Shown piece after piece: positions 11,415-62,746 of a stretch of 64,000 bases of DNA. A model generated the notes under the pieces. The model did no database searches. It saw nothing but the letters and a program-made list of their open reading frames with translations, and had not been told where the DNA came from. Origin of the DNA: Mobula birostris (Eukaryota); the NCBI RefSeq assembly GCF_030028105.1, contig NC_092384.1, forward strand, positions 67,831,548 to 67,895,547. Reading direction: 5' to 3'. How positions within the stretch are numbered: position 1 is the first letter of the stretch; every line of letters begins with the position of its first letter. The translations under genes were made by a program, and so were the position numbers.

Positions 11415-11637
11415 AAACACAAGAAAATCTGCAGATGCTGGAAACCCAACCAATGGACACAAAGTGCTGGAGGAGCTCAGTAGGGCATGCAGCATCTATG
11501 GAAAAGAGTAAACAGTTGATATTTTGGGTCGGGGTGCTTCGTCAGGATCCCGATGAAGGGTCTCGGCCCGAAACGTCAGCTCTTTACTCTTTTCCATTGA
11601 TGCTGCCTAGCCTGCCGAGTTCTTCCAGCATTGAGTG
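11415..11637. mobile_element. Fold-back PLE terminal-repeat derivative
   Basis: Two inverted copies of TGCTGGAGGAACTCAG...GCAGCATCTATGGAAAAGAGTAAA...; symmetry centre GGATCC 11545-11550; hammerhead-like CCGATGAAGGGTCTCGGCCCGAAACGTC on the + strand. Confidence 0.8.
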
Positions 11638-30170: not shown

Positions 30171-32856
30171 GTATCTGTAAGGAATTTGTACATTCTCCCT
30201 GTGACAGTGTGAGTTTCCTTTGGGTTGGAATTAGTGAGATGCTTGTATGCTCTATTGGTGCCGAAAGCATGCAGACACTTGTGGGCTGCTCCCAGCACAT
30301 CTTCACTCAAAAGGTGTATTTTATTTATTTATTTATTTATTTATGGTATCTTTCTATTTAATATCTCGCTCGGGTGCCAAAGACTTTTGCAGAGTACTGT
30401 AATAATTTTATGAGTTGTACTATACTGCTGCCACAAAAAAACCCTCAAATTTCGTGGGAATAGTGAGTTGGGGGGGAGGTTGAATGTTTTTCTCTGAATG
30501 GGTTCCATGGTTTTCTTTGTCACATGGCTGTTTGTGGGAAGATGAATCGCAGAGATATATACTGCAAACAGACCTTTATGATAAATATACTTTGAATCTT
30601 TGAATCTAGAATCTTTGCTGATAAACCTAATTCTAATATGAGACTCTTCTGTAGACTGAGAGTGGGAAGGGGGTAGGGAGAGTGGAATCGTGCTTGGGAA
30701 AGGTGGAAGGGAGAGGGGAGGGAGCAGGAAGCACTAGAGAGGCATTCTGCCATGAACGATAAGCTAATTATTTGGAATCAAATGACCTTGCCTGGTGTTT
30801 CAGGTCTTGGTGTGGCTGAACCCATGTAAATGCCTGCATTGGCACTCCTTTTCTGCCACCTGTCCCACACCCGTCCCACGGCGCTCCACCCTTGCCATTC
30901 CCAATATCTTCTGCTTCCGCCAGGTTTTCAAACCCGCTCTCTGCTCCAAGTTGATAAATACAGTACTATGCAAAAGCCTTTGGCACCCTTGCTGTTTATA
31001 TGTGCCCAGACATTTGCACGGTACTGTACATGTGACAAATAAACCTGATCTTTATTTAAACATGGACGCATTTAATTGGTAGAAATTATTAATTGGTAAG
31101 TGTATATTGGATGCTTTAACAGCAGGTTGTTTATGATGACTGAGCCCTTCCTCATCCCTTATTTGGTCAAATGTTCCGGATTGACATGCAGAGAATAGCC
31201 GGCTGATAATTCTGTGTTATTCCTTGTTTATCTCCAATTTTTCTTCTTGACCTGGCCAGTTTTACCACCTTGCCAACTTCATCTTGAACGTGATTTATTC
31301 CCGGTTAAAAAAAAAACCTCTTCACAACTCCCATGCATGCCACTATGTTTTTCCTCTCTGAGAAGCAATGCATTAGTCCCTTTGTATTGCGTGGGTAAAG
31401 CTAGTATTACTGAGAATAAGTCAGTGCCTTAAATAATGATGATGCATGAAAGATGACTTTAGGGCTGGGGTGCAGTTCAGTCTGCAATATACCGAGTCTC
31501 CCGCAGATTTTGCAAAGTTAGCAAAAAGTCTTCAAATTGAAAGCAAGCGTTCTTGAATTCAGCTGATTTGTTACTTTAGAATATATAACCTACCATTTCA
31601 GAGGATAGGTTTTGAGAAATAATATTACCAAATATATCTAATGCTTGAAGGTAGTTTCAGATGAAGCAATAACAATCTCAGTCCTGTAAAATCAGTACTA
31701 TTTATATTGTCCTTCACCAGATGTTGTTTCCATCAAGGTTACTATCTTCTTCTTCTTCTTCTTAAGCCCATCATCTCTCCTGGGGCATAGGCCGCTTACA
31801 GCGGTTTGCCTGATTCCCCCGTCCTGGGCCCGTCCCTCAAGCTGTCCCCAGGTGTAACACATCTTGGTGAAGATCCTTCCTCTCCCAGGTGACGTCTTTG
31901 GAGCCTTTGTTGATGTTCCTATAGCTCTGGGCTTTTTACAGGTTGGGGTTGGTTGCCTCATGCCCAGCCATCATCCTTTCGCAGCCGGGCTGGAGATCAT
32001 CCGTGGCAGAGTTAAGGTTACTTTAACATTTGATATATTGTTGAGAATATTCAAAACGGATTCTTGAGTGGGATAGTTGTGGATCACAGATGAGTAGGTG
32101 ACAACTGATGTATTTTCAGGTCCTGTAACTAACCCATTGTTATTCATTTTATAATGTTGTGCATTCTTGGCACTTGGCCATTGTCCTGAGATATGTACTA
32201 GAGTCTGTAGCAGATATTTTTAATCATTTTACAAAGTGCAAATATTGAAAAATAAGGGTAAACTAAAAGACTATATCCATAAGCATTCACAGTTGAAGGT
32301 TCTGGTGTTTTGAACTTGAATTTAATATTTAATGGGGGCTGCAGTTCAAGACATTTAACTATGCATGGATTAGAATTAGTCAGAATCAATTTTTTAAAAA
32401 TCTCAACTTGGAGCCCAGCGCAATTATAAACAGACCATTCAAGGTTTTTTTTGGGGCATGGAATGACCAGCTAATGTTCTTCTGGATGTTAGATTGGCAT
32501 TATAAATATTATCATGAGGCTGACAGCCTCTAAGTTAACCTCTTGTGTTTAATTGGCTTTCTGGCCTACAGTTTGGAGGTTTTGGATTTTGCCTTTTTTG
32601 CTGGTCTTAATGCACCATGCCAGCTGTCTTCTGCAGCTGACTTAAGGGATATTTCTTTGTCGTTAGCTATTTTTTTTTGTTTCTCCCTGTGGTGCAGCAT
32701 TTTTTTATTGTTATCAAACACTTCAACAGCCAATTGATTTTGTTTAGTGCCTTTTTAATAGAGGAAAAGGTCTCAAAATGTTTCATTAGACAAAATATAA
32801 ATGAGAGCAGGTGGGAATAATCTTAATAATCCTGCAAAGAGTTAATCATAAAATAG

Positions 32857-35574: not shown

Positions 35575-35760
35575 ACATATACAAAATGATGGAGGAACTC
35601 AAGCAGGTCAGACAGCATCTATGGAAAGGGTTAAGCAGGTCCAAAATGTCCACTGTTTATTCCTCTCTATAGATGCTGCCTGACCTGTTGTTCCTCCAGC
35701 ACTGTGTGTGTGTGTGTGTGTGACTCTGGATTTCCAGCATTTGAAGAATCTTTGGTGTTT
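35575..35760. mobile_element. Fold-back PLE terminal-repeat derivative
   Basis: GGAGGAACTCAAGCAGGTCAGACAGCATCTAT and ATAGATGCTGCCTGACCTGTTGTTCCTCC form inverted arms; (TG)n expansion at 35703-35722. Confidence 0.75.
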
Positions 35761-42504: not shown

Positions 42505-44465
42505 CGCCTCCTTCCCTTTCTCCCATGGTCTACACTCCTCTCCTATCAGATCCCTTCTTCTTCAGCCTTTTTTCACCTATCACCTCCCAGCTTCTTACTT
42601 CATCCCACCTCCCTCCTCATCTGGCCTCACCTATCTCCCGGCAGCTTGCACTCCACCTTCTTATTCTGGATTCTTCCCCAACAAGAGAAAATCTGCAGAT
42701 GCCGGAAATCTAACAAAATGCTGGAGGAACTCAGCAGGCCGGGTGGCATCTATGGAAAACAGTACAGTTGACTTTTTGGGCCGAGGCCCTTCATCAGGAC
42801 TGGAGAAAAAAAAGAAGAGGAGTCAGAGTTAGAAGGTGGGGGGAGGGGAGGAAGAAACACAAGGTTATAGGTGAAATGGAGGGATGAAGCAAAGAGCTGG
42901 GAAGTCGATGGATGAAAGAGATCAAGGGCTGGAGAAAGGGGAATTGGATAGGAGAGGACAGAAGGCCATGGAAGAAAGAAAAGGGGAAGGAGCACCAGAG
43001 GGAGGTGATGGGCAGCTGAGGAGATAGGGTGACAGAAGGAAAGGGGAATGGGGTATGGTGAAGGAGAGTGGGGGACATTAGCGGAAGTTCGAGAAATTGA
43101 TGTTCATGCGATCAGGTTGGAGACTACCCAGATGGAATATAAGTGGTTGCTCCTCCAACCTGAGTGTGGCCTCATCGTGACAGTAGATGAGGCCGTGGAC
43201 AATCCTGATGAAGGGTCTCGGCCCGAAAGGGGACAAGCTCTCCTCTACAATCACTCTGAGCACCGGTGCCCCACAAGGCTGTGTACTCAGCCCCCTGCTG
43301 TACTCACTGTACACCCATGATTGTGTAGTCAAGTTTCCATCAAACTCAATACATAAGTTTGCTGATGACACAACAATTGTAGGCCATATCTCGGGTTATG
43401 ATGAGTTTGAGTACAGAGAGGAAATTAAGAACCTGGTGGCATGGTGCAAAGACAATAACCTATCCCTCAACGTCAGCAAGACGAAGGAATTGGTAGTTGA
43501 CTTCACAAGGAGTAGCAGACCGCATGACCCAATTTATATCGGTGGTGCACAAGTGGAACAGGTCAAAAGCTTTAAGTTCCTTGGGGTCAATATCACAAGT
43601 GACCTGACTTGGTCCAACCAAGCAGAGTTCACTGCCAAGAAGGCTCACCAGCGCCTTTACTTCCTGAGAAAACTAAAGAAATTTAGCCTGTCCCCTAAAA
43701 CCCTCACTAATTTTTATAGATGCACTATAGAAAGCATTCTTCTAGGGTGTATCACAACCTGGTATGGAAGTTGTCCTGTCCAAGACCAGAAGAAGCTGCA
43801 GAAGATCGTGAACATGGCGCAGCACATTACACAAACCAACCTTCAGTCCTTGGACTCACTTTACACCGCACACTGTTGGATCAGTGCTGCCAGGATAATC
43901 AAGGACACGACCCACCCAGCCAACACACTCTTCGTCCCTCTTCCCTCCAGGAGAAGGTTCAGGAGCTTGAAGACTTGTATGGCCAGATTTGGGAACAGCT
44001 TCTTTCCAATTGTGATAAGACTGCTCAACGGATCCTGACCCGGATCTGGGCCGTACCCTCCAAATATCTGGACCTGCATCTTGTTTTATTTGTACTACCT
44101 TACTTTCCATTTTTCTAATTTTTCTATTTATGATTTATAATTTAAATTTTTAATATTTACTATCGATTTGTAATCCAGGGAGCGGGAAGCGCAGAATCAA
44201 ATATTGCTATGATGATTGTACGTTCTAGTATCAATTGTTTGGTGACAATAAAGTATAAAGTAAAGTAAATGTTGACTATATACTTTTCTATAGATGTTGC
44301 CTGTCTTGCTGCGTTCCTCCAGCATTTTGTGTGTTTTGCCTGAATTTTCCCCCTTCCCTTCCTGTCCTGATGAAGTGTCTCAGCCCGAAATGTTGGCTGT
44401 TTATTCCCCTCTGTAGATGCTGACTGACCGGCTGAACTCTTACAGTATTTTGTGTGTGTGTTGCT
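42505..44465. mobile_element. Nested cluster: outer PLE terminal repeat (+), inner PLE remnant (-, 42681-44345), Rex1/Babar LINE (+)
   Basis: The outer repeat breaks at TTCCCC (42674-42679) and resumes at TTCCCC (44347-44352), followed by CTGATGAAG...GAAA. The inner copy has the GIY-YIG ORF end on the minus strand (EATLRLEEQPLIFHLGSLQPDRMNINFSNFR) and an inverted repeat split by the LINE. Confidence 0.8.
43229..44269 (+). mobile_element. 5'-truncated Rex1/Babar-clade LINE (RT C-terminal half + 3'UTR + TAAAG tail), young copy
   Basis: Uninterrupted frame STGAPQGCVLSPLLYSLYTHDC...KFADDTTIVG...LNVSKTKELVVDF...KKAHQRLYFLRKL to the stop at 44038; AATAAA at 44247; (TAAAG)n tail to 44269. Confidence 0.92.
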
Positions 44466-45424
44466 CTGTTCCCATCAGCTTAGCCATGGAATGGACCCAA
44501 ACAGAATGCAGCTAAGATGAAAACTGGTTATGCAGCAATTTTCTGATTATTGTACATTGTGCATGAGATTACATCCTCTGGATGATCCAAAGGTTCTTCA
44601 GAACAATGAACTTCGACACATTGTCTAGTTTTTGTCTCATTCCCATTTGAGGGAGCAGATTTTATGCGAATTGGCCCTGAATTTCTGACATGGCAGTAAC
44701 TTGGTTGCAGAATACTTTATTTAGAGATCCTATTCATGAAAGGCTTTGAGTAAAAGCAGAGCAGCATGTTATTTTGTTCTTTTTATTCTTTATTCTGCCT
44801 TTGTTCCATCTTCTTTCTTGTTTACTTTTCTATCCCCTTTATGCATTCTTTTCTTCCCTCTTACTGCTTTCTCTCTTCCTCTCTATGCTCTTCTCTATTC
44901 CTTGATTTCTGATAATGTTAACTTTCAGCCTGTGGAGAAATGCAGGGAGGAAGGATATCATAGTCTCAGTGGGATTACTTTTTAACTTAATAAGCTTCTG
45001 CTTTAAATCACGAACTGCATGTTTGTAGCCCAAATTACACCCAAAGGGAATTGCTCCCTCCATTGGGTAGTGAAATCCCTTCTCTCAAATGCAGTGTAAA
45101 TCTGTTGATATACAATATATTTTGTGAGATTAATGTGCACGTTTAGACATATTTCAATAAAATATATTAAGTATTGCTTATTTTAATGAAAAGTACCAAA
45201 TTTTAACCCTTTTGACAACCGTGCAGTGATGCAGTGGCAAAGTGGTGAAGTTTATTAGACCAGTATCCAGAGAGCTAGAATTCCACCTCAGCATCTGTAG
45301 CATTTAAATTTCTAAATTGAATTAACTAAATTGAAAATATATCAATATAACCTAGTATTGGTGAACTCAGATCTGTTGAATTGTTGTTGTTGAAGCAGCA
45401 CAAGAAAGTGGCATTCATCAGCAA

Positions 45425-45830
45425 GGGCACCCCACCATCCAGGACCTGATCCCTTATCACTACTACCATCAGTCAGGAGGTACCGGAGTATTAGGTCCCA
45501 CACCACCAGGTTCAGGCTGTGGAACCAGTGTGGATAACATCACTCACCTCAGCACTGAACTGCTTCCACAACATATGGGCTCACTTTTAAGGACTTTGCA
45601 GCTCATGATCTCAGTATTATTTATTTAGTTGTTCTGTTTTCACAGTTTATCTTACTTTGCACACTACGCTGTTGGTTTGTCAGTCTGCATGTATGGTCTT
45701 TCACTGATTCCATTGTATTTTTATGTTCTGCTGTGAATGTCTGCAAGAAAATGAATCTCAAGGTGGTATATGGTGGCATATACCGGTATGTACTTTGATA
45801 ATAAATTTACTTTGAATTTTGAACTTTGAC
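45425..45830 (+). mobile_element. Rex1/Babar-type LINE 3' fragment
   Basis: CCCCACCATCCAGG...AGGAGGTACCGGAG...CACACCACCAGGTTCAGG; AATAAA followed by TTTACTTTGAA tail. Confidence 0.75.
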
Positions 45831-46732
45831 ATTGGAACAGTTTACCAGTTCACTCATGGAACTCTGTTGACACAGACTTGCTTGACTGGTCTGTTAATTT
45901 ATCTGTTAAGTGCTATTAAGAGCTATAGAAATTGAAAATGTTGGAGAAACTTACATTAGGCAGCATCAGTGAAAAGAGAAAGAGTTAATGTTTCAGATTG
46001 AAGATATTTTGTTAGAAATGGGAATGGTTTAGTTGGAGGAGTTGAGTTTCGTGTTGGACATGCATTTAAGGAAAATGATTCACATGGTTATGGGTTTAGA
46101 GAAGTAGAATTTGGGAGGGTTTGATTGCAATACCAGGCCAATAGCTATAGATGATTAATTACTTTTAGGCCTTTTCTGATACTGTTTGGTGCAGTACATT
46201 ACTCTCCATCTTAGAAACTAACCTGTTTAAAAACATTGACCCCTGCTCCTTCTGAGATGTCCGTAGGATGATGCCAGATTGATTGTTGGTGTACTTTTGT
46301 CTTATATGTTATTTTCCTCTATATCTAGTGGATAATTTGAGCTTCTTAACAGAAATAGGTTTAATATCACTGACCTGTTAAAAGTGAGCAAAATTGTGAG
46401 GTCGTGTTAGTGGGTTCATGGACCACTCAGAAATCTGATGGAGGAGAAAAAGCTGAACCTTAAATGTTGACTGTGTGTCTTCAGGCTCCTCTAACTCCTC
46501 ACCAATGGTAGTAATGAGAAGAAGACATATCACTGATTGTGATACAACTTGAGTAACATTCTATCACAGGGAATATTTGCTTTTGGAGTCATGGACAAGG
46601 GGATATAGTTACAAGATAAGGAGCCAGTCATTTAGAACTGAGGTGCATTGATTTTCCTCCCAGAGTGTGTTGTGAATCTCTGGGATTCTGTCCTAGAGGA
46701 GTGTGGAGGCCAGATCATTAGATATCCTTAAG

Positions 46733-47194
46733 GCAGACATGGTCAAGAGGTTCAGTTGTTGTTCAGATTAAACATCAGAATGGGGAAGAAATGTGATCTG
46801 AGTGACTTTGACCATGGAATGACTGTTGGTGCCACACGGGGTGGTTTAAGTATATCAGGAACCGCTGATCTCCTGGGATTTTCATGTACAACGGTCTTTA
46901 GAGTTTACAGAGAATGGTGCGAAAAAGTCCAGGGACTGACAGATCTGTGGGTGCAAGTGCCTAGCTAATGAGAGAGGTCAGAGGAGAATGGCCAGACTGG
47001 CTCAAGTCAACAGGAAGATGATCAGTAACTCAAATAACCATATGTTACAACAGTGGTGTGCAGAAGAAAATCTATGAACACACAACACGTCAAACCTTGA
47101 AGCAGATGGGCTACAGCAGCAGAAGGTCACAAACATACACTCAGTGGCCACTTTATTCGGTACAGGAAGTAGCTAATTAAGTGGTCATTGAGTG
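46733..47194 (+). mobile_element. Tc1-like deletion derivative, copy 3 (left end missing), inside a CR1 3' fragment
   Basis: MGKKCDLSDFDHGMTVGATRGGLSISGTADLLGFSCTTVFRVYREWCEK; right TIR ends GAGTG followed by TA. Confidence 0.85.
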
Positions 47195-48554
47195 TAGATT
47201 TTAAGATGGACATAGATAAATACTTGTCAGATTGAGGAGCTAAGGGTTATAGGGAACTGGTACAGAAGAGGAATTGAGACCAGGATAGATCAACCATGAA
47301 GATATATGGATAAGTTTTGAGGTCCTGCTCCATTTTTCTTCGGATGTTATGTTGTATATCACCCTGTCTAGGAAATTGTGCAGACACCTGGGCAATAGAG
47401 CTTCTAGCAGCCTGTGAAAATGTTTGCTCCAGTTTGATGCATCCGGTTCTTAACAGTGTGAATCTTTTAATGTGTTTTGTTTTGCCCTGATCATAAGTGA
47501 ATAGCATTCTGTGCCAAATAGGAATATTCACTTAAAAGGATCCTATCATAGTTGAAATAAAATATGATACTATAAAAGAAAAACAATTTCCTTAAGATCA
47601 GTCAGTATAAGATGTAATATTGCTCCATAATTTTAGAGTCTAGCTTCTCAAACTTCCTGAAAAATCAATTGCTGTTACTGGTAATTATTCATTTTACTGT
47701 CCTTGCTCAGTTGGGCTTGGGATGTTTTCACTTGGTTGCCAGTAGAAAGATCGTATGCCATAAAAAAAAGACCTTTAAACGATGAGGCATTGTAAACTTG
47801 ACTGCTTTCATATGGATTGAGCTATCCCAAATAAAGATCTTGAGCAGGTAAACTGCCCTGTGACTCTGCAAAGGTTAGAAACAAGTATGTGTGTGTTAGA
47901 ACAAAGGGTGCAAGGGTGTGTGCCTGCTGACATGATGAAGGAAGCCCTGAACACTGCCAGAGATGTAGGACCTTCACTGCTGTCCTAAATGCCAGTGGCA
48001 TAATGGGCAGTAGGTACTTGTTTAGCCCTAATTGAGTTTGGATGAAATCACCATAAACCAACCTTATCCCTTTGGTACAGTGCAGGTGATGTCCATTCTT
48101 CGCAGACGGTCTTGAGCTTAGCAGCTGTTTGAGTCACTGTTTTGTTCCCTGTGACCTTTTCAAGTTGGTTAAAGTCACAGTGAGACTCCAGTAGTATAGC
48201 ACGAACACTTTTGTGGTCTGTAATAAAAAGAAGCTCTAGTACGGTTCAAGGAAAGGTTTAATGCAAGTAATGTCAGAAATGAGAGGCTACAGCTCTCAGA
48301 TCAAGTTGAACAGACTGAGGCTCTTTAGAAACAAAAAGGCTAAGTGCTAATCTGATGGGAATCATTGAGATTTTGATAGGATTGAAATGCCGACTTGGAT
48401 CAACTTGGATCATTTTTGGGGACATAAATTTAAGTTATAGAATTCAGGCGGAAATTCTCACCAAGTGAGGTGTTGCAGGGCATAACTTCCTTTCATAAGA
48501 AGAAGTGAACAGAAAATGTATATTGAAGGAAGGCTAAATAAGGAGAAATAAGTT

Positions 48555-48935
48555 ACTTACTGCCCATTATGCTGCTGTCCTCCATCTCTGTACAGGGCTT
48601 CCTTCATCACGTCAGTAGCTTCCTCTTGGGTTTCACTACTGTCTATCACGCAAGTCCCAGATGGGGACTCAGGAATACCGTTGCACTCAGATGTAGGATT
48701 CTTCATTGCTGTTTCCAAAACAACTTTGTTTTACTGGTCAGGATTGTTAGCCCTGAGGTGAGCCCCCGAACCCAGGAGGACAGGTGGACCACTCTTAGTC
48801 TGGCCTCTACCTTTTGACCAGTTTGGCGTGGGTGACCCTACCAAGAGCCAAAGCATAAAGCCCTGACTCCAGCCTACATAGTTCTTCAGGACGTTGAGGC
48901 ATACAGCCCAGCAAACCCAATGACAATGTTGTGGT
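48555..48935 (-). repeat. Interspersed repeat family, probably a non-autonomous retroelement; also at 35278-35560 and 47960-48015
   Basis: Shared GGAGGAC.GGTGGACCAC.CTTAGTCTG.CCTCTACC.TTT.ACC.GTTT.GC.TGGGTGACCCTAC and CCCTGACTCCAGCC blocks. Confidence 0.7.
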
Positions 48936-49475
48936 CCTCTTGTAGAAGAGGGAACAATAAATAAAGGTGTTTTCACTGAGATGAGAGTCTTGTGCACCAA
49001 CATAGACAACTTTTTGAATTGTAATTACTTTGTAAATCAAAGCCCAGTATGTTCAAATAAGTACAAATGGGGCAATGTCAATACTACTCATGCCTAACCT
49101 TTTCCTTTGAGTTCCTCAGAAGCAGGGCCTAAAGTCTAAGACTGTATTTGTGAATTTCCTCTCCTGAAAGTTCCATTAAATTTAGATCTATGGGGGCTGG
49201 ATTCCTTCCAATTCCTGACTGTTTTTATATGTGGGTCCAGGTGTTCTGTCTGAGCAGGCTTTTCATATTGGAGAGAAACCAAAGCTAGATCAAGCCACGT
49301 GCTTACTGCACAACTCTGTCTATCTGCACGTACATTCAGATGCAAGTGGCTTAATTTTTAATGTGGATGTGGCTGGCAAGATCAATGTCTATTATCCATA
49401 ATACCTCTGAATTGAAAGCTTAAGCCTAATGATATCAAAGTTCAGAAGACAGGTCATTATAAAAGATTTTTTTTT

Positions 49476-49592
49476 CAACACAAAATGCTGGAGGAACTCA
49501 GCAGGTCAAGCAGCATCTATGGAAATGAATAATCAGTCGACCTTTCAGGCTGAGACCCGTCCTGAAGAAGAGTCTCGGCCCGAAAGGTCGAC
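49476..49592. mobile_element. PLE terminal repeat with a local fold-back of the hammerhead segment
   Basis: GTCGACCTTTCAGGCTGAGAC (49536-49556) and GTCTCGGCCCGAAAGGTCGAC (49572-49592) are near-perfect inverted repeats. Confidence 0.75.
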
Positions 49593-49604
49593 GAGGAATG
49601 CTTG

Positions 49605-49722
49605 AGAAAACTAGAAGAAGCCCATGTGGTCATGGGGAGAATGTACAAACTCCTTACAGACAGTGGCGGGAATAGAACCTGAGTCACTGGTGTTGTAATA
49701 GCATTAATTTTTATGCTAACCA
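49605..49722 (-). mobile_element. V-SINE 5' half
   Basis: GGGGAGAATGTACAAACTCCTTACAGACAG signature. Confidence 0.7.
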
Positions 49723-50653
49723 ATGTGCTACCTTTGACACCCTAAAAGCCAATACTTTCTAAAAATCCAAATACAAATAACGTTATGAGTTGTCAAGGTA
49801 TAGCACACATGTCCATCTTATTGTTTTAATCTGTGGTCAAGTATGGTTTGCCCCCAGACTGCATGTTATAAAAACATACCAATGCAAAATATTCTTAATT
49901 ACTGCTTGATAGCATGTCAGTGATGGTATTAGAGGGAGTTCTTCACCATGCTTACACATTTTGTTATTGAATTGCAATCAGTAAGAATCAATTATAGGAT
50001 AATTACTGGCTGAGAATAGTTACCTCACCTCGCAAGAAGCCTGCCAGTCAATATGTAGTTTCTTGTGAGAGTGTGTTTTTATCATATATTTCCTTCCTCT
50101 TTCTGATTAAATTGTAAAATTCAGAACTTTATGGAAATAATCAACCATATGAGGCCTGAATGAAGTGGTAAGCCGTGTGTATCTCAAGTTTAGTGCAGTT
50201 TAACAGAGAACATCATTCAGAATATTAACTTGATGAACACGGTGAATCTGAGATACCTTGACAATGTGGGTGCATTGAAGTGCACAGATTCAAAGTTCAA
50301 CATGTGTTCCTTTTCCTTGTTTCAAATAGTTTAAGATGAGCAAAGTTAAAGACTTTAAACTATTCAATTAATCTCTCCAACATTTAATCATGTAACTATT
50401 ACTTGCCACTCTCAGCCTCCGACACTCCAGAGAAAACAGTAGAGCTTGTTCAACTTTTCCTGATAGCTAGCGCTCTCTAGTCCCGGTGAACCTCCTGGGC
50501 ACCTTTTCCAAATGGTCTGCACCTTTCTTAAGATGGCCAAATGCAGGCATGTGAGCATAGAGGGGCAACTTGGTCATCATGGGTGATTTGGAACAAGGGT
50601 CTGTTGGTACGCTGTCTAAATCAACATATCTAATTGGTGCTGGTGGTGGTACT

Positions 50654-50965
50654 TAAGGCATCCGTTAGTCTTGCGAGACCATGGATCTGCGCATGGAAAG
50701 TCTTCGCTCTCCAGGGCGCAGGCCTGGGCAAGGTTGTATGGAAGACCAGCAGTTGCCCATGCTGCAAGTCTCCCCTCTCCACGACACCAATGTTGTCCAA
50801 GGGAAGGGCATTAGGACCCATACAGCTTGGCACCAGTGTCGTCGCAGAGCAATGTGTGATCAAGTGCCTTGCTCAAGGACACAACACGTTGCCTCGGCTG
50901 GGGCTCGAACTCACGACCTTCAGGTCGCTAGTCCAATGCCTTAACCACTTGGCCACGTGCCCACA
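50654..50965 (-). mobile_element. Full-length tRNA-derived SINE with CORE-like central block
   Basis: Minus strand: A box TGGCCAAGTGG, B box GTTCGAGCC, CORE-like GTGTCCTTGAGCAAGGCACTT; 11-bp TSD GTGGTGGTACT (50643-50653 and 50966-50976). Confidence 0.88.
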
Positions 50966-50989
50966 GTGGTGGTACTGCTACCTGTCAAC

Positions 50990-51470
50990 GTTCAAAGTAC
51001 ATTTATGATCAAGGTATGTATAAATTATACAACCTTGAGATTCATTTGCTTACAAGCAACCACAAAGCAAGAAATCCGAAAGAATGCAGTAAAAAAAGAC
51101 TAACAAACACCCATTGTGCAGAGAGAAAAAGAAAACATATATCATGCAAACGATGAAAGCAAGCTCCAGCATTCAGAACAAAAGTGAGTCCATAGACATG
51201 AAGCCCGGAGCAGCCAAAGCAGGCTTGCAGCCTCAGTTCATCACACAGTAGAGCAAATCATCGTGGAGCTCGCAGACACGAAGCCCAGAGCAGCTGGAGT
51301 GGTTACAGCCTCAGGCGCAGCGCTGCCGAGAGCGGAGTAAGCGTCACAGAGCAGTGAGCAGAAGTGGCCCAACCTTGCCTCCGACCCAAATACCCTGCTT
51401 TTTCTATCCATCCACCCTGGTGTTTAAATTGTCCAAACATCGGGTATTCCTTGCATTAGGGCATAGGCCC
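50990..51470 (-). mobile_element. Non-coding retroelement with Rex-like tail
   Basis: Similar to 2118-2515; internal direct repeat AGACA.GAAGCCC.GAGCAGC. Confidence 0.6.
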
Positions 51471-52084
51471 TGGCACTTCAAAATACTCTGGACAACGGGT
51501 TTGCTGCCATGTTGTTTCAATTAATGACTTGAGTGGTGCTGGTAGTGGTACTGCTCCTGACTGAAGATAATTGGTAAATTGGTTTATTATTGCCAAGGTA
51601 CAGTGAAAACCTTTGCCATCCGTATTTTTCGTTTCACTACAACAGTACATTAAGGTGGCACAAGGGAAATAACTTACAGAGTGCAGGATTAAATGTTACA
51701 GTTACAGAGAAAGTGCAGTGCAGACAGACAATATGGTACCAGGTAATGACAAGGTAGATTGTGAGGTCAAGAATCCATCTTATCATACTCGACTGTCTTG
51801 TTGTACCAGTGGACCAATCAGTGGTTTTATAACAGCAGGATAGAAGCTTACCTTGAGCCTTGTAATTATTTTCAGGCTTATGTATCTACTGCCCAATGGG
51901 AGGGGATGGAGCGAAGAGTGAAGTTTGTGAGTCATGACTGATTAGTCTTGGAGAGATGTAGATGAAAGGAGGGGAATGATTACAGAGAAGAGAGGAAAAA
52001 TCCTGGAATTGGAAAAGCTCTGCAGCTGCTGGAAATCCACAAGAATTTGTTTAGAGAGAGAAGGACAAAGTTTTACTGGTTGAT

Positions 52085-52268
52085 GACACAAGAGGTTCTG
52101 CAGATGCTGAAAAACCAAAGCAACACACACAAACTGCTGGAGGAACTCAACAGATCAGGCAGGATGTATGGAAAGGGGGAAAAAGGAGTCAATGTGTCGG
52201 GCCAAGACCCTTCATCAGCTCAGCCCAACATGCTGCCGCTTTCTCTCTCCGTGGTTGCAGCCTGACCT
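52085..52268. mobile_element. Fold-back PLE terminal-repeat derivative, flanked by older PLE-like sequence
   Basis: Family signature TTCTGCAGATGCTG...CTGGAGGAACTCAAC...TCGGGCCAAGACCCTTCATCAG, followed by an inverted partial arm. Confidence 0.7.
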
Positions 52269-52719
52269 TTTACTGGGCAGGTCTGGTGCAGATTGGAAAA
52301 GAAAATATCTAAAATTGTTGAATCTAATATTGAACACCAAGATCTGTAACATGTTCAATCAGAAGACAAGATGCTGTTCCTCGATCTCACATCAGGGTGT
52401 TTTTCTTTAATCGGAAACCATTGGAGTCTGGACTGGATTGGAATGGCAAATTAAAGTGAGAGGCAACTCTACCTCAATGCTGAGTTTTCAGCTTCTGTGT
52501 TCAGTACTGTCAATCACTACTTGTTAAGTTTTTCAAAGGGCTTCTTAAAACATTTTTTTCTGGATCTTGCATTGGTTGGTTGTTTTGACCTGTGAGCCTT
52601 GATTGTATAGCTAGCGACCACTGTGTCAGAGATGTTCATAGTTTCAGAATATTTGCTAATTCTTTAATGGTTAGAAACTACTACATGGTGTATATATGAT
52701 TATATGTTTGTATGATGCA

Positions 52720-52995
52720 CGATAATAGTGCAAGGGTTAACATGGTGCTATTGCAGCTCAGGCGTCGGAGTTTGGAGTTCAGTTCAAATGTCTGTCAGGA
52801 GTTTTTATGTTCCTCCTCGTGAATGAGTGAGTTTCCTCTAGATGTTCCGTTTTCTTCCCTCATCCCAAAGGTGTACTGGTTAATAGGTTGATTGGACATT
52901 GTAAAATGTCCTGATAGTAGGAAAGGGTTGCAGTGTGGAGCAGTTTGTTTGGGTGGAAGAGCCTGTTCCACACTGTACCTCTAAATAAATAAATA
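52720..52995 (+). mobile_element. Diverged V-SINE
   Basis: GGAGTTTTTATGTTCCTCCTCGTG...CATCCCAAAG...GGACATTGTAAAATGTCC; (TAAA)n tail. Confidence 0.7.
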
Positions 52996-54382
52996 TTTAT
53001 GTATTTATGAGTATATTACATGTACATGTGACTGATATACATGTACATTTATGTCACACAACAATATCAAGGGTTGTAGGAAAATTTGTATATAAATAAG
53101 TCACAGATCATAATTTTGTTATATGGTAGAGTAGACTTATTATACATATAGGAAGGTATCTCAAAGTGCTTCACAAGAGTGTTATGAAATAAAAATCTGC
53201 ATCAAGCCAACATTATAAGAGATAGCATTTAAAGAGTATGCTGAGGCAGGAAAGAAAGGTAAAAAGGTAGGGAGGGAATTCCAGAGCTGAGGTATCTTGA
53301 CAGCTAAAAAAGTGTTGAATGACATGATCGTACGTATGGCATGAACAAAAGGCCAAGAAAGAAAAGAGTACTTATCATAATGAATAATGGCCTGGGGAGA
53401 TTATAGTGAAAAGGGGAGGAGATACAATGAGGGGATCTATAACAAAGGAAAACTATTACTTAATTTGCATCCACCATCTTTGAAGAAAAGGTATCCAGAT
53501 CTCAAAAACTCGTTGTGTACTTAATGTTTCTTTGTATTTCAATTGATTCCCTTCGTCATCAGCTCATAGCAGTATCTTCTTGTGACCAACCTCCCACCAC
53601 TGGAAACACTTTTTCCTTATTTAGTCAATCGAAATCCTTCATGAATGTGAACACATCTGTCAAATCTTTTCTTAACCTTGTCTCCACATAACTGAAGCCC
53701 TTCATCCCTGGTGCTGACCTAATTAACCTCCACCGTGCTCTTACAAGGTCTTACCATACTTCCTGGAGAGTGAAGACTTGTCAGTATGATAGAGCACAAG
53801 TTCCTGGTTTTGGTCTGTCTGTAAGTCAGTGTGCGAATAGCTTGCTTTGGGCACTATTATGATTAAAACTTGTTTCTGTGAATTAGTTGCAGAACAAGTT
53901 CAGGAGCAGAAAGCTATTTGACTAAGATGTTAAGCAGGCATAAGCACAATCTATTTTATTGATGCCTGCATTCCAACAATATGCAAGAGTTGACAAAATA
54001 AAGAAGAAATATTTGTACTTTTAATATCTTTTGCATAGGTTTTCTTTTCACTACATAAAGATGCCCTTTGTTTCAAAGCAATAATTTATAAGCTATGATT
54101 TGTATTTCGAGTGCACGTTCCTTCCATTGCCTCACATTTATTCTGCAAGTGCTGCAGTAACTTATTACAATGTTTTCTCTTTCACATTTTGTTGTCACGC
54201 AGCATGTTCCAGGACTGTGCATAACAATGTAATGAATGCTTAACTACAACGTGAAGGAAAGAAATTATGAGCATTCACACTCATTTCAGTCACTTAAAGG
54301 GCATCCCTTTAGTTGCCACATTCCAGAAGCGTAAGTGGATACAATGCAATTAATAACATCATCATGTCTTTTAATAGCTCGT

Positions 54383-54650
54383 AAACACAAGAGATTCTGC
54401 AGCTGCGGGAAATCCAGGGTAACACACACAGAATGCTGGAGGAATTTAGCAGGTCAGGCAGTATCTATGGAAAGGAATAAAGAGTCAACATTTCAGGCTA
54501 ATGAAGGGTCAAGCAGTATCTATGGAAAGAAATAAAGAGTCAAGGTTTCAGGACCATTGGATGAAGGGTCTTGGCCCAAAATTTCTACTCTTCATTCCTT
54601 TCCATAGTTCCGCCTGACCAGCTGAGCTCCTCCAGCATTTAGTGTGTGTA
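54383..54650. mobile_element. Fold-back PLE terminal-repeat derivative with an internal ~40-bp direct duplication
   Basis: GCAGTATCTATGGAAAG(G/A)AATAAAGAGTCAA..TTTCAGG occurs twice (~54458 and ~54513), then an inverted arm GATGAAGGGTCTTGGCCCAAAA...CTCCAGCATTT. Confidence 0.75.
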
Positions 54651-55664
54651 TGCTTTTTATAGACCTTCAGTTCTGAGGCAAGTGCAATAGCTCACCTTGT
54701 ATCTTCTAGAAAACAAAGCAATATTCTTGCTTTTTACGGAAAAATGCAAAACCAGAAGTTTAAAAAATAAGGTAAATGGTATGAATCATGTAAGCTGAAA
54801 CATTTTATTGCATTAGAAGCATTAGGCTATTGAGTCTTTATAATGGTCCACTTTGGAGTGCAGGAATGAGTCCAGACAAAGAGACATTTAATCTTCCAAA
54901 ATTTGATGCTATTATTTTCAACACAAGCTTGTGAAAGAGGGATTAACCCTGCATTATTGTCTGTATTAAGACCATATCATGTAAGAGTAAGATGCTTTTT
55001 CTGGAAGAGATGCTGAGATAATTTTCCATCCTTCCTACTGTGCAGTTGTGCATTCTTTTCATCCAGGAATGTAGGGAATTATATTTGTAGATGAAGCCAT
55101 TCTAAGCTAGTTCAGAATAAGTAATGTGTGATCAGACTCTGAACGAGGCTTCCTGAGATCTGGTTCTGACAGTGCAAGCTGAAGTAGATGAGAGATTGCT
55201 TTTGAGTGTTAATAACAGCAAAAATATAAATCTGCCATTTTCACGTCAAAACAATGTATTTCATATTGTATAATAGCTGACACTGATGTGCTTATCTATG
55301 CTAGAAGCTGAATGTTGTTTATACAGAAGACTTGCACCATTTATATGGTTACTAAACCCCTAAGTGAGATGATGGACAGACAAATACCAGCAACTCTGTC
55401 CTCAAAATAGGTTGTTATGCTCTCAAACGTTGACGCTTCTACTAAGCCAGGACATTATCGCAATTACAGTGTGCAAATGTCCAGAGACAGATACCTAGAA
55501 GTGCCCATTCTCTGTGGCAATTAATATTTATAGCTCTTTAACCTATTTACTTATCATTTCCTATATATTTAAATACTCCAAAAATATCTCTTCCTCTCTC
55601 AACTAAACCCCTCCTGAAATTTTGTCCTTTTGCTTTTCTTACTGCCAATGCTCCCAAGAAGTTA

Positions 55665-56055
55665 GACCATAAGTCCATAAGGTATAGGAGCAGAGTTAGG
55701 CCATCTGATCCATTGAGTCTGCACCACCATTTCATCATGGCTGATCAATTTCCCTCTCAACCCCAATCTCCTGTCTTCTCCCAGTATCCTTTCATGCCCT
55801 CAAGACTTTATCACCCTCTGCATTAAATATACCCAATGACTTGGCCTCCACAGTAGTCTGTGGCAACAAGTTCCACAGATTCATCACTCTCTGGCTAAAG
55901 AAATTCCTCCTAATCTCTGTTCCAAATGGATGTCACTCTTTTCTGAGGATATGTCCTCTGGTCTTAGACTCCCCCAACAAAGGACACATCCTCTCCACAT
56001 CCACTCTATTTTGGCCTTTTAATATTCAATAGGTTTCAATGAGATCCCCCCTCAG
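55665..56055 (-). mobile_element. CR1 3' fragment
   Basis: Reverse complement resembles the 22762-23290 family; (ACCATAAG) tail repeats. Confidence 0.8.
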
Positions 56056-56288
56056 GAAATTTTAATAATGTTCTTTAAATCCAAGTGTTTGTAATGGTCA
56101 CTGCTTGGAATGTAACTGACAACATTCCTTTATTATTAGTTATATTCTGATTTCCTGGATCCTCCCCAGATTTTGTTTAAAATCTGATGTATTCAATCAT
56201 TCAAATAATATCGAGAAAAATCTCAAGCAACACACATAAAAATTGCTGGTGAACGCAGCAGGCCAGGCAGCATCTCTAGGAAGAGGTA

Positions 56289-56326
56289 CAGTCGACATTT
56301 CGGGCCAAGACCCCTCGTCAGGACTA
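56289..56326 (-). ncRNA. Minimal type-I hammerhead ribozyme motif, intact core
   Basis: Minus strand reads UAGUC-CUGACGA-G-GGGUCUUGGCCC-GAAA-UGUC-GACUG; helix III AUGU is self-complementary with G-U pairs. Confidence 0.72.
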
Positions 56327-56957
56327 ACTGAAAGAAGAGGTAGTAAGAGATTTGAAAGTGGGAGGGGGAGGGGGAGATCTGAAATGATAGGAGAAAACAG
56401 GAGGGGGAGGGATGGAGCTAAGAGCTGGAAAGTTGATTGGCAAAAGGGATAGGAAAGGATCATGGGACAGGAGGCCACACATTTTAATTCTACATCCCAT
56501 TCCCATTCTGATATGTCTATCCACAGCCTCCTCTACTGTCAAGATGAAGCCACACTTCAGGTTGGAGGAACACCTTGTATCCCTTCTGGGTCGCCTCCAA
56601 CCTGATGGCATGAACAGTGACTTCTCTAACTTCTGTTAATGCCCCACCTCCCCTTCGTACCCCATCTGTTATTTATTTATTATTATTATTAGTAATTTAT
56701 TTTTTTCTCTCTCTCCTTTTTCTCCCTCTGCCCCTCTCAGTATACTCCTTGCCCATCCTCTGGGCTTCCCTCCTCCCTCTTTCTTTCTCTCTAGGCCTCC
56801 CGTCCCATGATCCTCTCCCTTCTCCAGCCTTGTACCCCTTTTGCCAATCAACTTTCCAGCTCTTAGCTCCATCCCTCCCCCTCCTGTCTTATCCTGTCAT
56901 TTCTGATCTCCCCCTCCCCCTCCCACTTTCAAATCTCTTACTATCTCTTCTTTCAGT

Positions 56958-56995
56958 TAGTCCTGACGAAGGGTCATGGCCCGAAACGTCGACTG
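56958..56995 (+). ncRNA. Minimal type-I hammerhead ribozyme motif, intact core
   Basis: UAGUC-CUGACGA-A-GGGU(CAUG)GCCC-GAAA-CGUC-GACUG. Stem I is UAGUC/GACUG, the CUGANGA and GAAA boxes are conserved, helix III is the palindrome ACGU, and the GUC triplet predicts cleavage after 56990. Confidence 0.8.
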
Positions 56996-57607
56996 TACCT
57001 CTTCCTATAGATGCTGCCTGGCCTGCTGCGTTCACCAGCATTTTTTGTGTGTGCTGCTTGAAATTCCAGCCTCTGCAGATTTCCTCATGTTATCGAGATA
57101 AATCTATTGCCTTCTGTGCTCTAGTGTTTCAAATGCCCTTCTACTGTAAATACGACTTAAATGTTCCGAGACCATCTGTCTTCTCCACCCTCTTGAGCAG
57201 TGCATTCCAGATTTCAACCATCCCCTGGTTGCAAAAAGGTCATATCCACATCCCCTCTTTATGTTCTACCTTTTAGCTTAAATCTATGCCACCTGCTTAT
57301 AGACCTCTGCCCACTGGTAAGGCTCTTGTCTGTCTGGTCTATCTATGTCCTTGGTCATTTTTAATATCTCAATGAAGTCATCAAATTTTATGCCATGGAT
57401 AAAGACCCTTCGTCCCAACTCGTTCATACCATCCAAGATATATGTCGAAGCTTTTTATTGTTTTTGGTCCATTTCCCTCTGAACCTCTCCTATAATGTAC
57501 TTATCCAAATGTACATATTTTAAATACTTTTATAGCTGCATCAACTACTTTCCCTGGCAGCGCATTCCCAACACCCACCACCTTCTGCATGAAGAAGCTG
57601 CCTGTTA

Positions 57608-58335
57608 AAGACACCCACCATCCAGGCCATGCCTTCTTTCACTACTACCACTGGGCAAGAAGAACCAAAGCCTTGGGTCCCACACCAGCAGGTTCAGGAA
57701 TAGTTATTACCCTACAACCATCAGGATCCTGAACCAGCGTGATAACTTCCATTACCACTACTCTAAAGTGATTCTATGACCTACAGACTCAATTTCAAGG
57801 ACTTTTGACAACTCAAGTTCTCAATATAATTTTTTGTTTACACATTTTGCCTTCTGTTGCACAATAGTTATTTGTCATCTTTGCCTGTTTATGTATAGTT
57901 TTTTTTTCATAAATTTTATGATATTTCTTATTTTCACTGTAAGTGTCTGTAAGAAAATGAATCTCAGGTAGTATAAGGTAAAATATACGTACTTCTGATA
58001 ATAATCTGAGGGTGAGGCTATGGGACTGCTCCGCCTGCTGCGGGCTCTGCGACGTTTACTGCGCTGTGTACGAGCTGAGGCTGAGGCCATGGACTACTCC
58101 AAACTTCGTGTCTGAGGACTCACTTTCATTCAAAATGCTATTTGCATTGTTTTATTGTTTGCACAATTTGTTTTTTTTTCTTATCTGCACATTGGGTGTT
58201 AGTTGTTTTTTTAAAATGGTTTCTTTTGGGTTTCTTGTTTTGTGGCTGCCTTTAAAGAGGTGAATCTCAAAGTTGTTTAATATATACATACTTTGAGAAT
58301 AAATATACTTTGAGCTTTGATTTATTTTGAACTTT
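57608..58335 (+). mobile_element. Two tandem Rex1/Babar-type 3' ends
   Basis: KDTHHPGHAF...HTSRFRNSYYPTTIRILN, then two GAATCTCA(A/G)...TACTT(C/T)GA...AATAA tails. Confidence 0.72.
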
Positions 58336-59863
58336 TAATTTTCAGCTTTGAATTGAATCTTTTAAATCTTTCACCTTAAACACACGTCTTTTAATTATTT
58401 ATTTATTATTTAAAGATACAGCACCCCCTTTGAGCGCAAATGCTTGTCCCCTAATGTTAGACATTTTGTTTCTGTAAGATTCCCTCCCTCCCCATCCTAT
58501 CTCATTCAACTTCCCAAACCTTCTCTGAGGAAATAGCTTCTCAGTTAAGTTACTGAGATATGTAATTGATTAATAACATTCCCTGGCATTATGAAGTTCG
58601 AAATTATTCATTGTGTTTGGAGCCAGAATAAGAAATCGTACAAAAATTTAACCATGTAATTAATTTCGCTTCCAGAAACTCTTTAATTTTTGTGAATTTA
58701 TTTGAAAAAAATCATAGTTCATCATGGCATTTTATTGCCTTGCACTTTTAAGTGCAGGATATATTAATCTCATCCTTTACCAATCTTTTTTCATTTTGCA
58801 TCAGGCTGGGTGCCCTTCATTTCAGTTTGGTTGACAGGGAGACATGGTGCATCTTTCTTAATAGGTGGAGCCGTAAAACTGGTCATGTGGATCTTTGGTA
58901 TTGTGAGAACAAGGTACTCCTGAGGAGAAAGGTCACATTTCTGACTCATTACTTATCAGTGTAATCCAACCGTTCTCAGTGCAAGTTACAAAAAAAGTAT
59001 GCAATTTTTTTTGTATTGTAGTATCACAGTAACCTAATTAAACTGACCTGTTAGGTTTGAAGTGACTGAAGGTCACTAGCTTCCTGTGTCATAACTTAAG
59101 CAGACAGATGGTGACAAAAGATGACTAAATTAGTGCAAGAACTGGTCTTAATGTTCTAAGAAACTAATGTTATATTAATCTGATCAACCAAAGATTTCCA
59201 TCATATTAACTGATGAGTCTTTTTTTTTTTGCTATCTTTAATGTCAAATTGCCACAATGTCACTCGCATTTTCAGTCCCACGCTGTTCTGGTGGGTCCTT
59301 ATCAACATCTCTGTCATAACATTATATTCACATTTCTCCCACATCTGTAATGCATGTTGGGAAGGTTATTTTGGAACAATTTGATTGCATGAGGTATTGT
59401 GTTTCTTGGTTTTAAAAACATTCCAGTAAAAAATTTGGGCATTACAATCCAACACTAATTTCAAATCACAATGTCCAGGAATTCAGTTCCTTGCTTTTTT
59501 TTTAATCGTGGTGTTGCCATGAGGTTATTGTATTGCTTCTGAATATAATTATCTTTTATCATTAAACAGAATCTGGTTTGTAATGAAGGAAGTTTCCATT
59601 TGTGATCTGTGGTTTTGTTTATTTTCTGCTGAGCTTGAATCTATTAATAGGTGGTTATGTGACAACATCCCATAAATAATGACAGGAGTGTTGAAATCAT
59701 TTTCCTGAAGGTTGTAGTTTCTGGGCAGGAACTTTTCTACTTAAACACTTCCTGCTGAATGCAGGAAATTGGAACTAGCTAAGTGGGCAACATGGTCAAC
59801 CTGGACTAGATGGGCCAAAGTGCCCGTATCCCTGCTGTAATGCTCTATGACACCATACAGTAT

Positions 59864-60222
59864 TCTTCATTATCATTATGTGGCATGACGTATGACGTGG
59901 GCGATCATGGTCTTTTTGACCATGGTTGTCCTTGGTAAATTTTTCTACAGAAGTTGTCTGCCATTGACTTCTAGGCAGTGTCTTTACAAGACAGGTGACC
60001 CCAGCCATGATCAGTACTCTTCAGAGATTATCTGCCTGCTGTCAGTGGTCGCATAACCAGGACTTGTGATCTGCTCATACAGCCAATCACCACCTGCTCC
60101 CATAGCTTTGAGTGATCTGACTGGGGGGCTAAGCAGGTGCTACACCTTGTCCAAGGGTGACCTACAGGTTAGCGGAAGGAAGGAGTGCCTTACAGTTCCT
60201 TTGGTAGAGATGTATCTCCACT
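59864..60222 (-). mobile_element. Probable RTE-tailed SINE-like element
   Basis: Minus-strand 3' end GACCATGATCGCCCACGTCATACG... followed by an (ATG/ATA)n tail. Confidence 0.5.
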
Positions 60223-60734
60223 CCTCATTGGCTAAATATTTATTAGCTTTTCAGCAAGATGCAGAGGCCCATACATTTATGATCACATCTTACTGAGGCT
60301 AACCATTTACAAACTTTTTTTTTACTGATTACCATTTTAAAGATGCAAAATAATTTCTCTGTCCATTGTTAGCAACACAGCAAAGATAATAGTGTACCAT
60401 TCAGAGTTTGCTCTTTGTACTGCATTCTAAAAACAAATACATCTGGAGTGTCACTATTAGTTAAGAAAGGATATGATCCAGCTATTTTTATAATAATAGA
60501 TATCTGCAAACAACAAAACTCTCTTGTCAGTATTGGCTCAGTGGGTAGTACTCCCACCTCTGAATCAAAAAGTCGTTGTTTCAGTTCTCACCAGAGACTT
60601 CAGCAGGAGCTTTGGGCTGATGCTTCAGGGTGCACTATTGAAATTGTCTTTCACTGTATGAAATGTTACACTGAAACCCTTGCCTACTTGGCTAGCGACA
60701 GAATACTGTACCTACTTTGACAAACACTTCCCAG

Positions 60735-61127
60735 AGTTCGAAGTATGTGTATGTCACCATATACTATCTTGAGATTCGTTTTCTTGCAGGCATTCACAGT
60801 AAAGCAAAGAAACAGAATAAAATCAATGAAAAACTACACAAAAACAATGACTGACGAACAACCAATGTACAAAAGGAGACAAACTGCAAATTAAAAAATA
60901 AGTAATTAAATAATAGTGAGAACATGAGTTGTCAAATCCTTGAACGTGAATTCATAAGTTGTAGAAACAATTCAGAGTTGAGGTGAGTGAAATTATCCAT
61001 GCTGGGTTCAGGAGCCTGATGGTTGAAGAGTAATAACTGCTCCTGAACCTGGTGCTGCGGGATCTCGGGCTCCTGTACCTCCTTCCTGAGGCCAGCATGA
61101 AGAAGAGGGCATGGCCTGGATAGTGGG
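60735..61127 (-). mobile_element. Rex1/Babar-type LINE 3' fragment
   Basis: DSHYPGHALFFMLASGRRYRSPRSRSTRFRSSYYSSTIRLLN. Confidence 0.8.
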
Positions 61128-62746
61128 AGTCAACCAACCAACTGACATCACTGTAGAATATAATCACATACCATCTACCCACTATATGTGGGATCTTGTT
61201 GTGCCCCAGTTAGGAAGCATATCCCTGGCATTAGCATCAGTGGCTACACCTTGAGGGCATCTCATTGCCTGCAATGCAACTCGCTGTGAAAGACGCCATG
61301 TGAATGGAATTTGTTTCCCTCTCTTCCTTCTTCATTAAGAACTTCCTGAGATTCAGCCTCTTGTGCTCATTGCTCCCGAGTGGACCACGGCACATGGCTA
61401 GATGGTGGGAGTGAAGGCAGTGTCCAACCAGCTTATGACACAGATAAATGAAACTGGTACGATACCGCTGTGTTCTGCAGTCCCCTTTTTCAGAAGCTGG
61501 CATTAATATAAATACATCGTATTAACACTTGTTCTCCTCTGTCAGGATATAAATTAAGTCTGCAGGTGTTCAGAAAAGCTTACCCTTGGTACTAATTAAG
61601 CCATGATAATTAGGTTTGTTAATTTTATCCCTGTAAGCTTGTATCCCAGAAACACATTGCCCGCATGGAAGGGCTTTTAAAGAATGCTCAAAGATTACTC
61701 AGTCGTTTATGCCCCATGCAGAGTTTTAGTCAAAAAATCTGTAATGGGATCTACTAAAGGGAAATAATGAGCATCTTAAAATATAAGTTGGTAAGCAGTG
61801 TATAGGGGGACTTAAAAAGAGGGTTCAAGTCCAGTTGCAACAAGGCACAGTAACAATGCGGAGCGAGGTGACAAAGAGGAAAGGCTGATTAATTACTTCA
61901 AGGTTCGGGAGCTGGTGCGTCTCAGTCATAATGAAGCCCTTCTGTGTTGCCCATCACCACAGGAGGCTACAGTGTGAGTGAAGAATGGATTAAAGAGGGG
62001 GGAAAGTGTACAAAAGAGAGGGGTTATTGCATACTGCAGTGTCAGTTAGCCCGTTGTAGAGTTGTTCATCATTCCATCCCTGGTGGCCATTGGCAAGGTC
62101 CAGGCTCAAGCTGTAAAGGGAGCAGGAAACCTGACACAGGCCTCCAAATTTCTCCAGAGCTTGCTGAGGCTGCAACCCATATGCCACCATTAACCATCAA
62201 ACTTGGGCCTATGGGGGCCCTGACGACAATAAGGCTCAGAGTTGTTTTCTTGACTGAAAATGCCCAACCTTCTGCTTCAGATATACATGCTGTTAACAGT
62301 GGGTGTTCTGTGGTAAGTATAAGCTCCGGTTTACCATTAAATGCAATAAATAAATAACAAGTGTATTTATAGACAAAACTATTAATTAGATTGCATATAT
62401 AAAGTAGAATATATTGCACCTTTTTTCCATAACCTACTGGATAAAACCTGTATAAAAATTAAAGTTCACAATTGATCATTACTAATTTTATTCTGCCAGA
62501 TATTCTTAATTTGGACACAGATCTCAATGTAGCATTACTTCTTAATTAATTTTATTGAAATCAATTTTCAAATACCTTACGATAAAGAATATTTCATGTG
62601 CAAATTATCATTTTTGTTCTGCACTGGGGCGAAATAATCACTTCGTAGCAGGCAAAGTCATTGATCACAGCCAGGGAATAGATCTTATTAATTATAAAGC
62701 AGGAAATTGAAATAGCACTTTAAAAATGTGAGCTTCTGTATATATA

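Follow-up and report, generated by a model that had tools for sequence, protein, structure and literature searches.

A probable head-to-head Penelope-like insertion with non-identical arms in the genome of Mobula birostris

Structure of the insertion and its surroundings

The window analysed here is a 64,000-nucleotide stretch of the Mobula birostris contig NC_092384.1, and all positions are counted from its first base. The insert at 56224-57090 is, in all likelihood, a single, non-coding, 5'-truncated head-to-head copy of a very abundant Penelope-like retroelement (PLE). Its limits are fixed by a 15-bp target-site duplication, whose left (56209-56223) and right (57091-57105) copies are identical at 14 of 15 positions. 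An initial annotation had placed the element at 56218-57087, which is right as an approximate location, with the edges now corrected by the duplication.

The insert opens with a short inverted arm on the minus strand (56224-56476), which corresponds to the 3' end of the element without its tail, in a variant without a 14-bp insert, and which contains a minimal type-I hammerhead motif at 56289-56326. The head-to-head joint consists of four bases, GGCC at 56473-56476, that are compatible with both arms, and its position recurs at two other loci. The plus strand then carries the last ~54 codons of a PLE GIY-YIG endonuclease, recognized by identity to P0001 and frameshifted, up to a stop codon at 56637-56639 (56473-56639), followed by an AT- and pyrimidine-rich part of the 3' UTR (56640-56793) that is common to sister copies and stays unpaired as the hairpin loop. 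The right arm (56794-57060) comprises 3' UTR and the end of the pseudo-LTR (pLTR) in the variant that has the 14-bp insert (56818-56831, identified as a family variant from copy counts), and includes a second minimal type-I hammerhead at 56958-56995. A 30-nt tail at 57061-57090 closes the insert on this side only, the left arm having no counterpart of it, and the family sequence fades at 57092-57095.

The inverted arms of about 250 bp described in the initial annotation were recovered, with an alignment of 272 columns at 89% identity when the 14-bp gap is counted and 94% when it is not. They are separated by 317 nt of unpaired sequence, and the joint is not a hairpin palindrome. The classification as a PLE insertion that has one inverted arm and a pair of minimal hammerheads was likewise borne out. 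At the end of the left target duplication (56219-56223), four of five bases equal the element sequence past the short arm, a possible primer-template match.

A Pfam search of 252 of the 370 non-repeat stop-to-stop ORFs of at least 38 aa detected no host exon, with one sub-threshold match and a length limit at which short exons would be missed. Comparison of four contig sets with positions 44500-61000 was dominated by other repeat copies and revealed neither a splice joint nor a strand nor an RNA end, and, among the pieces listed, none spans the element. No A-to-I scar was seen at the locus, where the right unit shows one A>G and one T>C among six changes and the left arm two A>G among four.

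Five more head-to-head pairs, formed by older related PLE 3' ends with 72-85% identity to the main insert, occur in the window at 11422-11632, 29220-30172, 35575-35714, 49478-49592 and 54422-54649, the last with an additional 46-nt internal direct repeat. An older PLE end lies on the minus strand at 42715-43228, with hammerhead-like motifs on opposite strands at 42774-42797 and 43205-43228. Other abundant repeat fragments flank the element at 55670-56035 and 57600-58000, and one of these fragments has an inverted counterpart at 60740-61131 (71%).

Hammerhead motifs

Both hammerheads lie where the initial annotation had placed them and have complete cores (CUGACGA, stem II, GAAA, GUC and a 5-bp stem I), with one extra base after CUGACGA and one U-G pair in stem I. 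Position C17 falls at 56990 in the plus-strand motif and at 56294 in the minus-strand motif. Each arm thereby shows the defining features of the minimal PLE type-I hammerhead, namely CUGANGA, GAAA and NUH, stems I and II, the extra base at 9/10.1 and the G10.1-C11.1 pair. A helix III reduced to self-complementary bases had been described for both motifs, which is accurate for the palindromic ACGU of the right arm, whereas for the AUGU of the left arm self-pairing requires two G-U wobbles. The left-arm sequence is the CpG-decay form, ATGT being present in 29 of 266 copies and ACGT in 178.

A scan for the hammerhead motif yielded 28 matches in 920 kb of the genome versus none in each of three shuffles. 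The model search suggested by the initial annotation came out negative, as Rfam models scored neither motif at E values up to 10. Dimers were predicted at -16.7 and -12.8 kcal/mol, compared with twice -8.9 kcal/mol for the monomers, which amounts to no predicted gain. Stem I was identical in 105 of 122 motifs and only single compensated variants were found, in a sample that is dominated by one family and has low power. In 102 of 266 copies a T stands at position C11.1, which corresponds to 56982 in the window. This share is much higher than at other CpG cytosines and is read here as a putative G10.1-U11.1 subfamily variant.

Both hammerheads of this insert are likely to be inert relics. In the available text of PMC4209133 (Cervera and De la Peña 2014), minimal metazoan PLE hammerheads cleave poorly, even as dimers. 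The available text of PMC11167929 (Frangieh et al. 2024), on the Poseidon element of Anolis carolinensis (PAc), describes a hammerhead that cuts only with protein and is dispensable for insertion in vitro, and reports no read ending at the hammerhead cut site.

Endonuclease remnant and clade assignment

The end of a GIY-YIG ORF was also part of the initial annotation. What remains is a C-terminal remnant of about 54 codons in two frames, with 26 of 30 and 17 of 23 residues identical to P0001, and the GIY and YIG motifs, which would map upstream of the joint, are missing from the window copy. A Pfam search of the window's coding remnant returned no match, and the remnant is identified as a GIY-YIG endonuclease because sister copies carry the fuller domain. 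In these copies the sequence runs on into a GIY-YIG domain that contains cysteines, with a linker of the form Cx4CxxC; one of them, L010 (VIYCVQCSRCGLLYIGET), has its GIY-YIG endonuclease at the C-terminus, where two cysteines lie between GIY and YIG, and P0001/L010 matches PF01541 weakly, at an E value of 0.019 that falls short of the curated cut-off.

In P0001, the linker CKRNKCYTC precedes the GIY-YIG domain and is of the CX2-5CxxC type of Neptune/Nematis. As far as the available text of PMC8557442 goes, this linker marks Neptune/Nematis and is absent in Poseidon. By the linker criterion the parent element would belong to the Neptune/Nematis clade, an assignment based on the linker and not on the reverse transcriptase, as the L010 sequence extends upstream only to the region just before the linker. 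The Penelope/Poseidon clade was ruled out by the presence of the linker zinc finger. Among 158 tailed copies, no sequence of an ORF start was found beyond the tail.

Abundance, layout and joints of the family

For sampling, 92 segments of 10 kb each (920 kb in total) were drawn from large contigs at round coordinates. This sample contained 75 3' ends of the family at 80% identity or more, 53 of them solo and 22 arranged in 11 head-to-head pairs, with no tail-to-tail pair and no adjacent tandem pair. Extrapolation to 4.0 Gb gives a genome total of roughly 48,000 fold-backs (about 24,000-86,000). A larger set of 283 loci, most of which came from similarity searches and are therefore biased to young copies, included 54 fold-back pairs; nine duplicate loci were removed from the locus set. 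Exactly one arm was tailed in 49 of the 54 pairs, and a target duplication of at least 11 bp surrounded 44 of them, versus 1 of 150 mismatched flank pairs.

The exact joint of the window, with at most one mismatch, was found at three loci in 4.0 Gb. At the other two, both arms belong to different haplotypes, the duplications are their own and the outer ends differ, and the joint has therefore recurred independently. This hints that GGCC may favour joining. A coarse test gave no general excess of microhomology at joints, with two or more shared bases in 8 of 43 fold-backs versus 10 of 60 simulated blunt joints, and the joints of the 43 fold-backs examined were scattered in position. At the joints of L040, L184, L202, L291 and L074, 20-40 nt lie between the arms and fit neither arm's continuation, and some of these extra segments resemble other element pieces. 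A very young fold-back, L295 (G000:C8:44045614-44048644), has arms identical at 204 of 206 positions and a joint positioned as in the window, and its short arm stops some 50 nt ahead of where short arms usually end.

The two arms are different family variants

The arms of the window insert differ at the 14-bp indel and at 56801, 57008 and 57041, all of them linked family variants, and their mismatches are spread over the whole arm (56801-57047). Of about 108 sampled copies, 39 have the 14-bp insert and 69-70 lack it. With the window itself counted, all 40 scored genome matches to the right-arm form carry the insert stretch at 96-100%, and all 40 scored matches to the left-arm form are at 95-100%. 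The haplotype of each arm was found again in other copies, and 78 and 49 of 232 copies are as near to one or the other window arm as its own partner is.

Mismatch between arms is not confined to the window. Over the 54 pairs, arms agree at 488 of 558 variant sites (87.5%) versus 60.6% for random partners, a count that includes site 56779, which adjoins a homopolymer and was left out of later counts, and also L179, which consists of two unrelated insertions with a different deletion. After exclusion of the ten pairs without a detected duplication, the remaining 44 pairs, including the window and L179, showed 52 mismatches at 412 variant sites versus 9.7 expected from the background, and 38 versus 8.6 when site 57008 was left out. 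When L179 was dropped as well, the 43 duplication-flanked pairs differed at 55 of 472 variant sites; the background for changes of any kind is 343 of 7093. On these counts, the arms appear to disagree at family variants several times more often than mutation predicts. The sites were selected as variable ones, and mutation hot spots may be among them. For the ten youngest pairs the count was 8 mismatches at 110 sites with a background of 1.6%, and mismatch rises with age, from 7% to 12% and 14% (Spearman 0.31, p 0.08).

Of 26 pairs, two have arms that differ in the 14-bp indel itself: the window insert and L187, the latter inside its own target duplication. By site count, L287, L052 and L184, all duplication-flanked and with seven, four and four arm mismatches, are stronger cases than the window. 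At site 57008 (T/G/C) the two arms disagree in 15 of 50 pairs; this would be either a hot spot or a position at which co-active sources segregate. Of the rare variants, 12 were shared between arms and 265 private, versus 97 shared and 8836 private in random pairs, with none shared in the window and no difference between concordant and discordant pairs. Among the open-access papers searched, we found no report of mismatched arms within one duplication.

Origin of the two arms

The 3' segment is common to both arms and was therefore available twice. We consider it probable that such an insertion uses two non-identical templates, be they two RNAs or one mixed tandem RNA, a reading drawn from sequence comparison. 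The first of these forms, to which we give slightly less than an even chance, is that a dimeric enzyme takes up two RNA molecules and starts copying one of them at each end of the same staggered cut. The endonuclease would nick the two strands at points about 15 bp from each other, and the two ends of that one cut would likely both prime copying. One copy would start at the tail site and the second some 30 nt inward; these two start sites match those mapped in vitro for the anole element in the available text of PMC11167929. The two cDNAs would then meet and be joined, here at GGCC. Under this two-RNA reading, the arms would be two draws from the RNA pool and not a snap-back. One template, or one dominant source, would still be the common case, because the indel mismatch is confined to 2 of 26 pairs and L295, a very young copy, has almost identical arms.

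It is somewhat unlikely that one template was copied twice, or primed itself, to give identical arms, one of which was later overwritten by gene conversion from another copy. Self-priming has been proposed in PMC3846280, as its available text states, the family holds many mosaic haplotypes, and the 87.5% arm agreement, the near-identity of the L295 arms and the upward trend of mismatch with age, as gene conversion predicts (p 0.08), all suit this account. However, the mismatches extend over the entire arm, each arm is a haplotype known elsewhere, the excess is already visible in the youngest pairs, and the joint shows no hairpin palindrome, with 317 nt left unpaired between the arms.

The other form of the two-template reading, in which both arms come from one tandem RNA with two different pseudo-LTRs, seems to us rather unlikely. 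PLEs are transcribed as partial tandems (PMC11167929, available text), the 14-bp insert sits on the tailed arm in both indel-mismatched cases, and site 56951 is polarized 4 to 0 in one direction, but most sites show both polarities (57008: 7, 4, 2, 1; 56865: 3, 3; 56851: 3, 2) and the 75 sampled 3' ends include no adjacent tandem.

Two separate insertions, the second beside or into the first, would fit arms of different variants, and unrelated neighbours do occur (L179), but a single duplication surrounds both arms and none surrounds a single arm, while the pairing of a tailed with a short arm is the rule, which makes this origin very improbable.

Does the hairpin have a function of its own?

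The initial annotation proposed that read-through RNA buries the ribozyme under the antisense arm, and that this masking explains why host transcripts tolerate such insertions. The physical part agrees with the predicted folds. The hairpin of the read-through RNA is predicted at about -534 kcal/mol with stem I lost (pair probability 0.0, against 0.92 for pairing to the other arm), and the antisense duplex at -65.7 kcal/mol versus -8.9 kcal/mol for the monomer fold. Masking would, on these predictions, be expected physically if the locus is transcribed.

As a selected design, in which the antisense arm silences a harmful ribozyme so that fold-backs are tolerated in host transcripts, self-masking strikes us as hardly credible. 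It is in keeping with the predicted loss of stem I and with the intact cores on both arms of the window insert, but the genomic copies speak against it. Core and stems are intact in 107 of 266 motif-covering copies, and such copies are no commoner among fold-backs (30 of 79) than among solo copies (77 of 187; Fisher p 0.68), which form the majority. Pairs with two intact arms number 5 of 36, close to the chance level for a 40% rate. There would also be little to mask, because those animal PLE hammerheads that have been described hardly cleave unless a dimer partner or the element's protein is present, according to the available texts of PMC4209133 and PMC11167929.

The initial annotation had made conservation and covariation of the motif its refutation test, and the outcome is divided. 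The catalytic CpG bases G8 and G12 are A in 36 and 46 of 266 copies, and non-catalytic CpG guanines are mutated alike, in 46 (56978) and 50 (57030) of 266; G8 and G12 decay at ordinary CpG rates. Non-CpG core bases depart from the majority at 47 of 2362 positions (2.0%) versus 821 of 28034 in the flanks (2.9%; base-matched P 0.001). There is, then, a modest excess of core conservation and no sign of protection after insertion. The conservation is best read as selection in source elements, which these counts do not separate from selection on copies. In the mechanism favoured above, the hammerhead would be kept by selection in source elements only, and the hairpin and its masking would be by-products of insertion geometry.

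Least likely of all is that the hairpin is a non-autonomous unit amplified whole, in the manner of a MITE or a retrozyme, as the joint common to three loci might suggest, but with only three matches in 4.0 Gb at up to one mismatch, different haplotypes and outer ends, and scattered joints in the 43 fold-backs.

Implications and comparison with known systems

The element, the layout and the ribozyme are already published, and the insert is an ordinary member of its family that holds a mechanistic clue. Arm mismatch inside one target duplication separates self-priming from two-template models by counting alone, and the 14-bp indel of the window is one of the clearest markers, given that point mutation cannot produce it. 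Should two RNAs be used, this would give a function to the predicted PAc dimer. If the two-RNA reading is true, the fold-backs, in their tens of thousands, would preserve a record of which sources were co-expressed, and two-RNA complexes would provide a route to mosaic family haplotypes and to hammerhead dimerization.

In LINE-1 twin priming, both nicks of one cut prime copying, and the product is an inversion flanked by a single duplication. The parts copied in that process do not overlap and belong to one RNA, whereas here a common 3' segment is present in both arms.

Animal non-LTR retrozymes are likewise derived from PLEs and carry a type-I hammerhead, according to the available text of 10.64898/2026.07.22.740005. 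They form head-to-tail arrays, unlike the present insert, which is head-to-head with a coding remnant and a target duplication. Identity with a non-LTR retrozyme was ruled out by this layout and by the count of zero adjacent tandems among the 75 3' ends.

Pairs of PLE hammerheads on opposite strands, 100-700 bp apart, are described in the available text of PMC4209133. The motifs found here resemble the hammerheads of that work in being type I, with an extra base at 9/10.1, a G10.1-C11.1 pair, positions 15.2-16.2 that are palindromic in the right arm, and a short stem I. They differ in stem II, which has 4-5 bp here, in motifs known by sequence, versus 7-8 bp in the Schistosoma families.

For PAc, the available text of PMC11167929 reports that both strands are cut and extended and that a dimer is predicted. 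The insert would resemble PAc in having two reverse-transcription start sites that define the tail, and differs from this Poseidon element in that its parent has a Cx4CxxC linker before the GIY-YIG domain. Products made from two templates do not appear in the available text on PAc.

The insert has the arrangement of EN+ PLE insertions, with an adjacent inverted 5'-truncated copy, a one-sided tail of 30-40 nt and a target duplication. In its available text, PMC8557442 draws inverted-pLTR insertion units of EN+ elements and leaves the origin of the inverted structures undefined, and PMC3846280, likewise in its available text, describes the same layout with a duplication for Pen2/Pen2a of Adineta vaga, ascribing the inverted repeats to self-priming. 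The insert shares with these units a 5'-truncated copy joined to an inverted 5'-truncated copy, a 30-nt tail on one side and a single duplication. It differs from the Adineta elements in that the duplication is 15 bp, versus 8-10 bp, and the joint is no palindrome. Furthermore, self-priming as put forward in PMC3846280 predicts identical arms, whereas the arms of this insert are different family variants.
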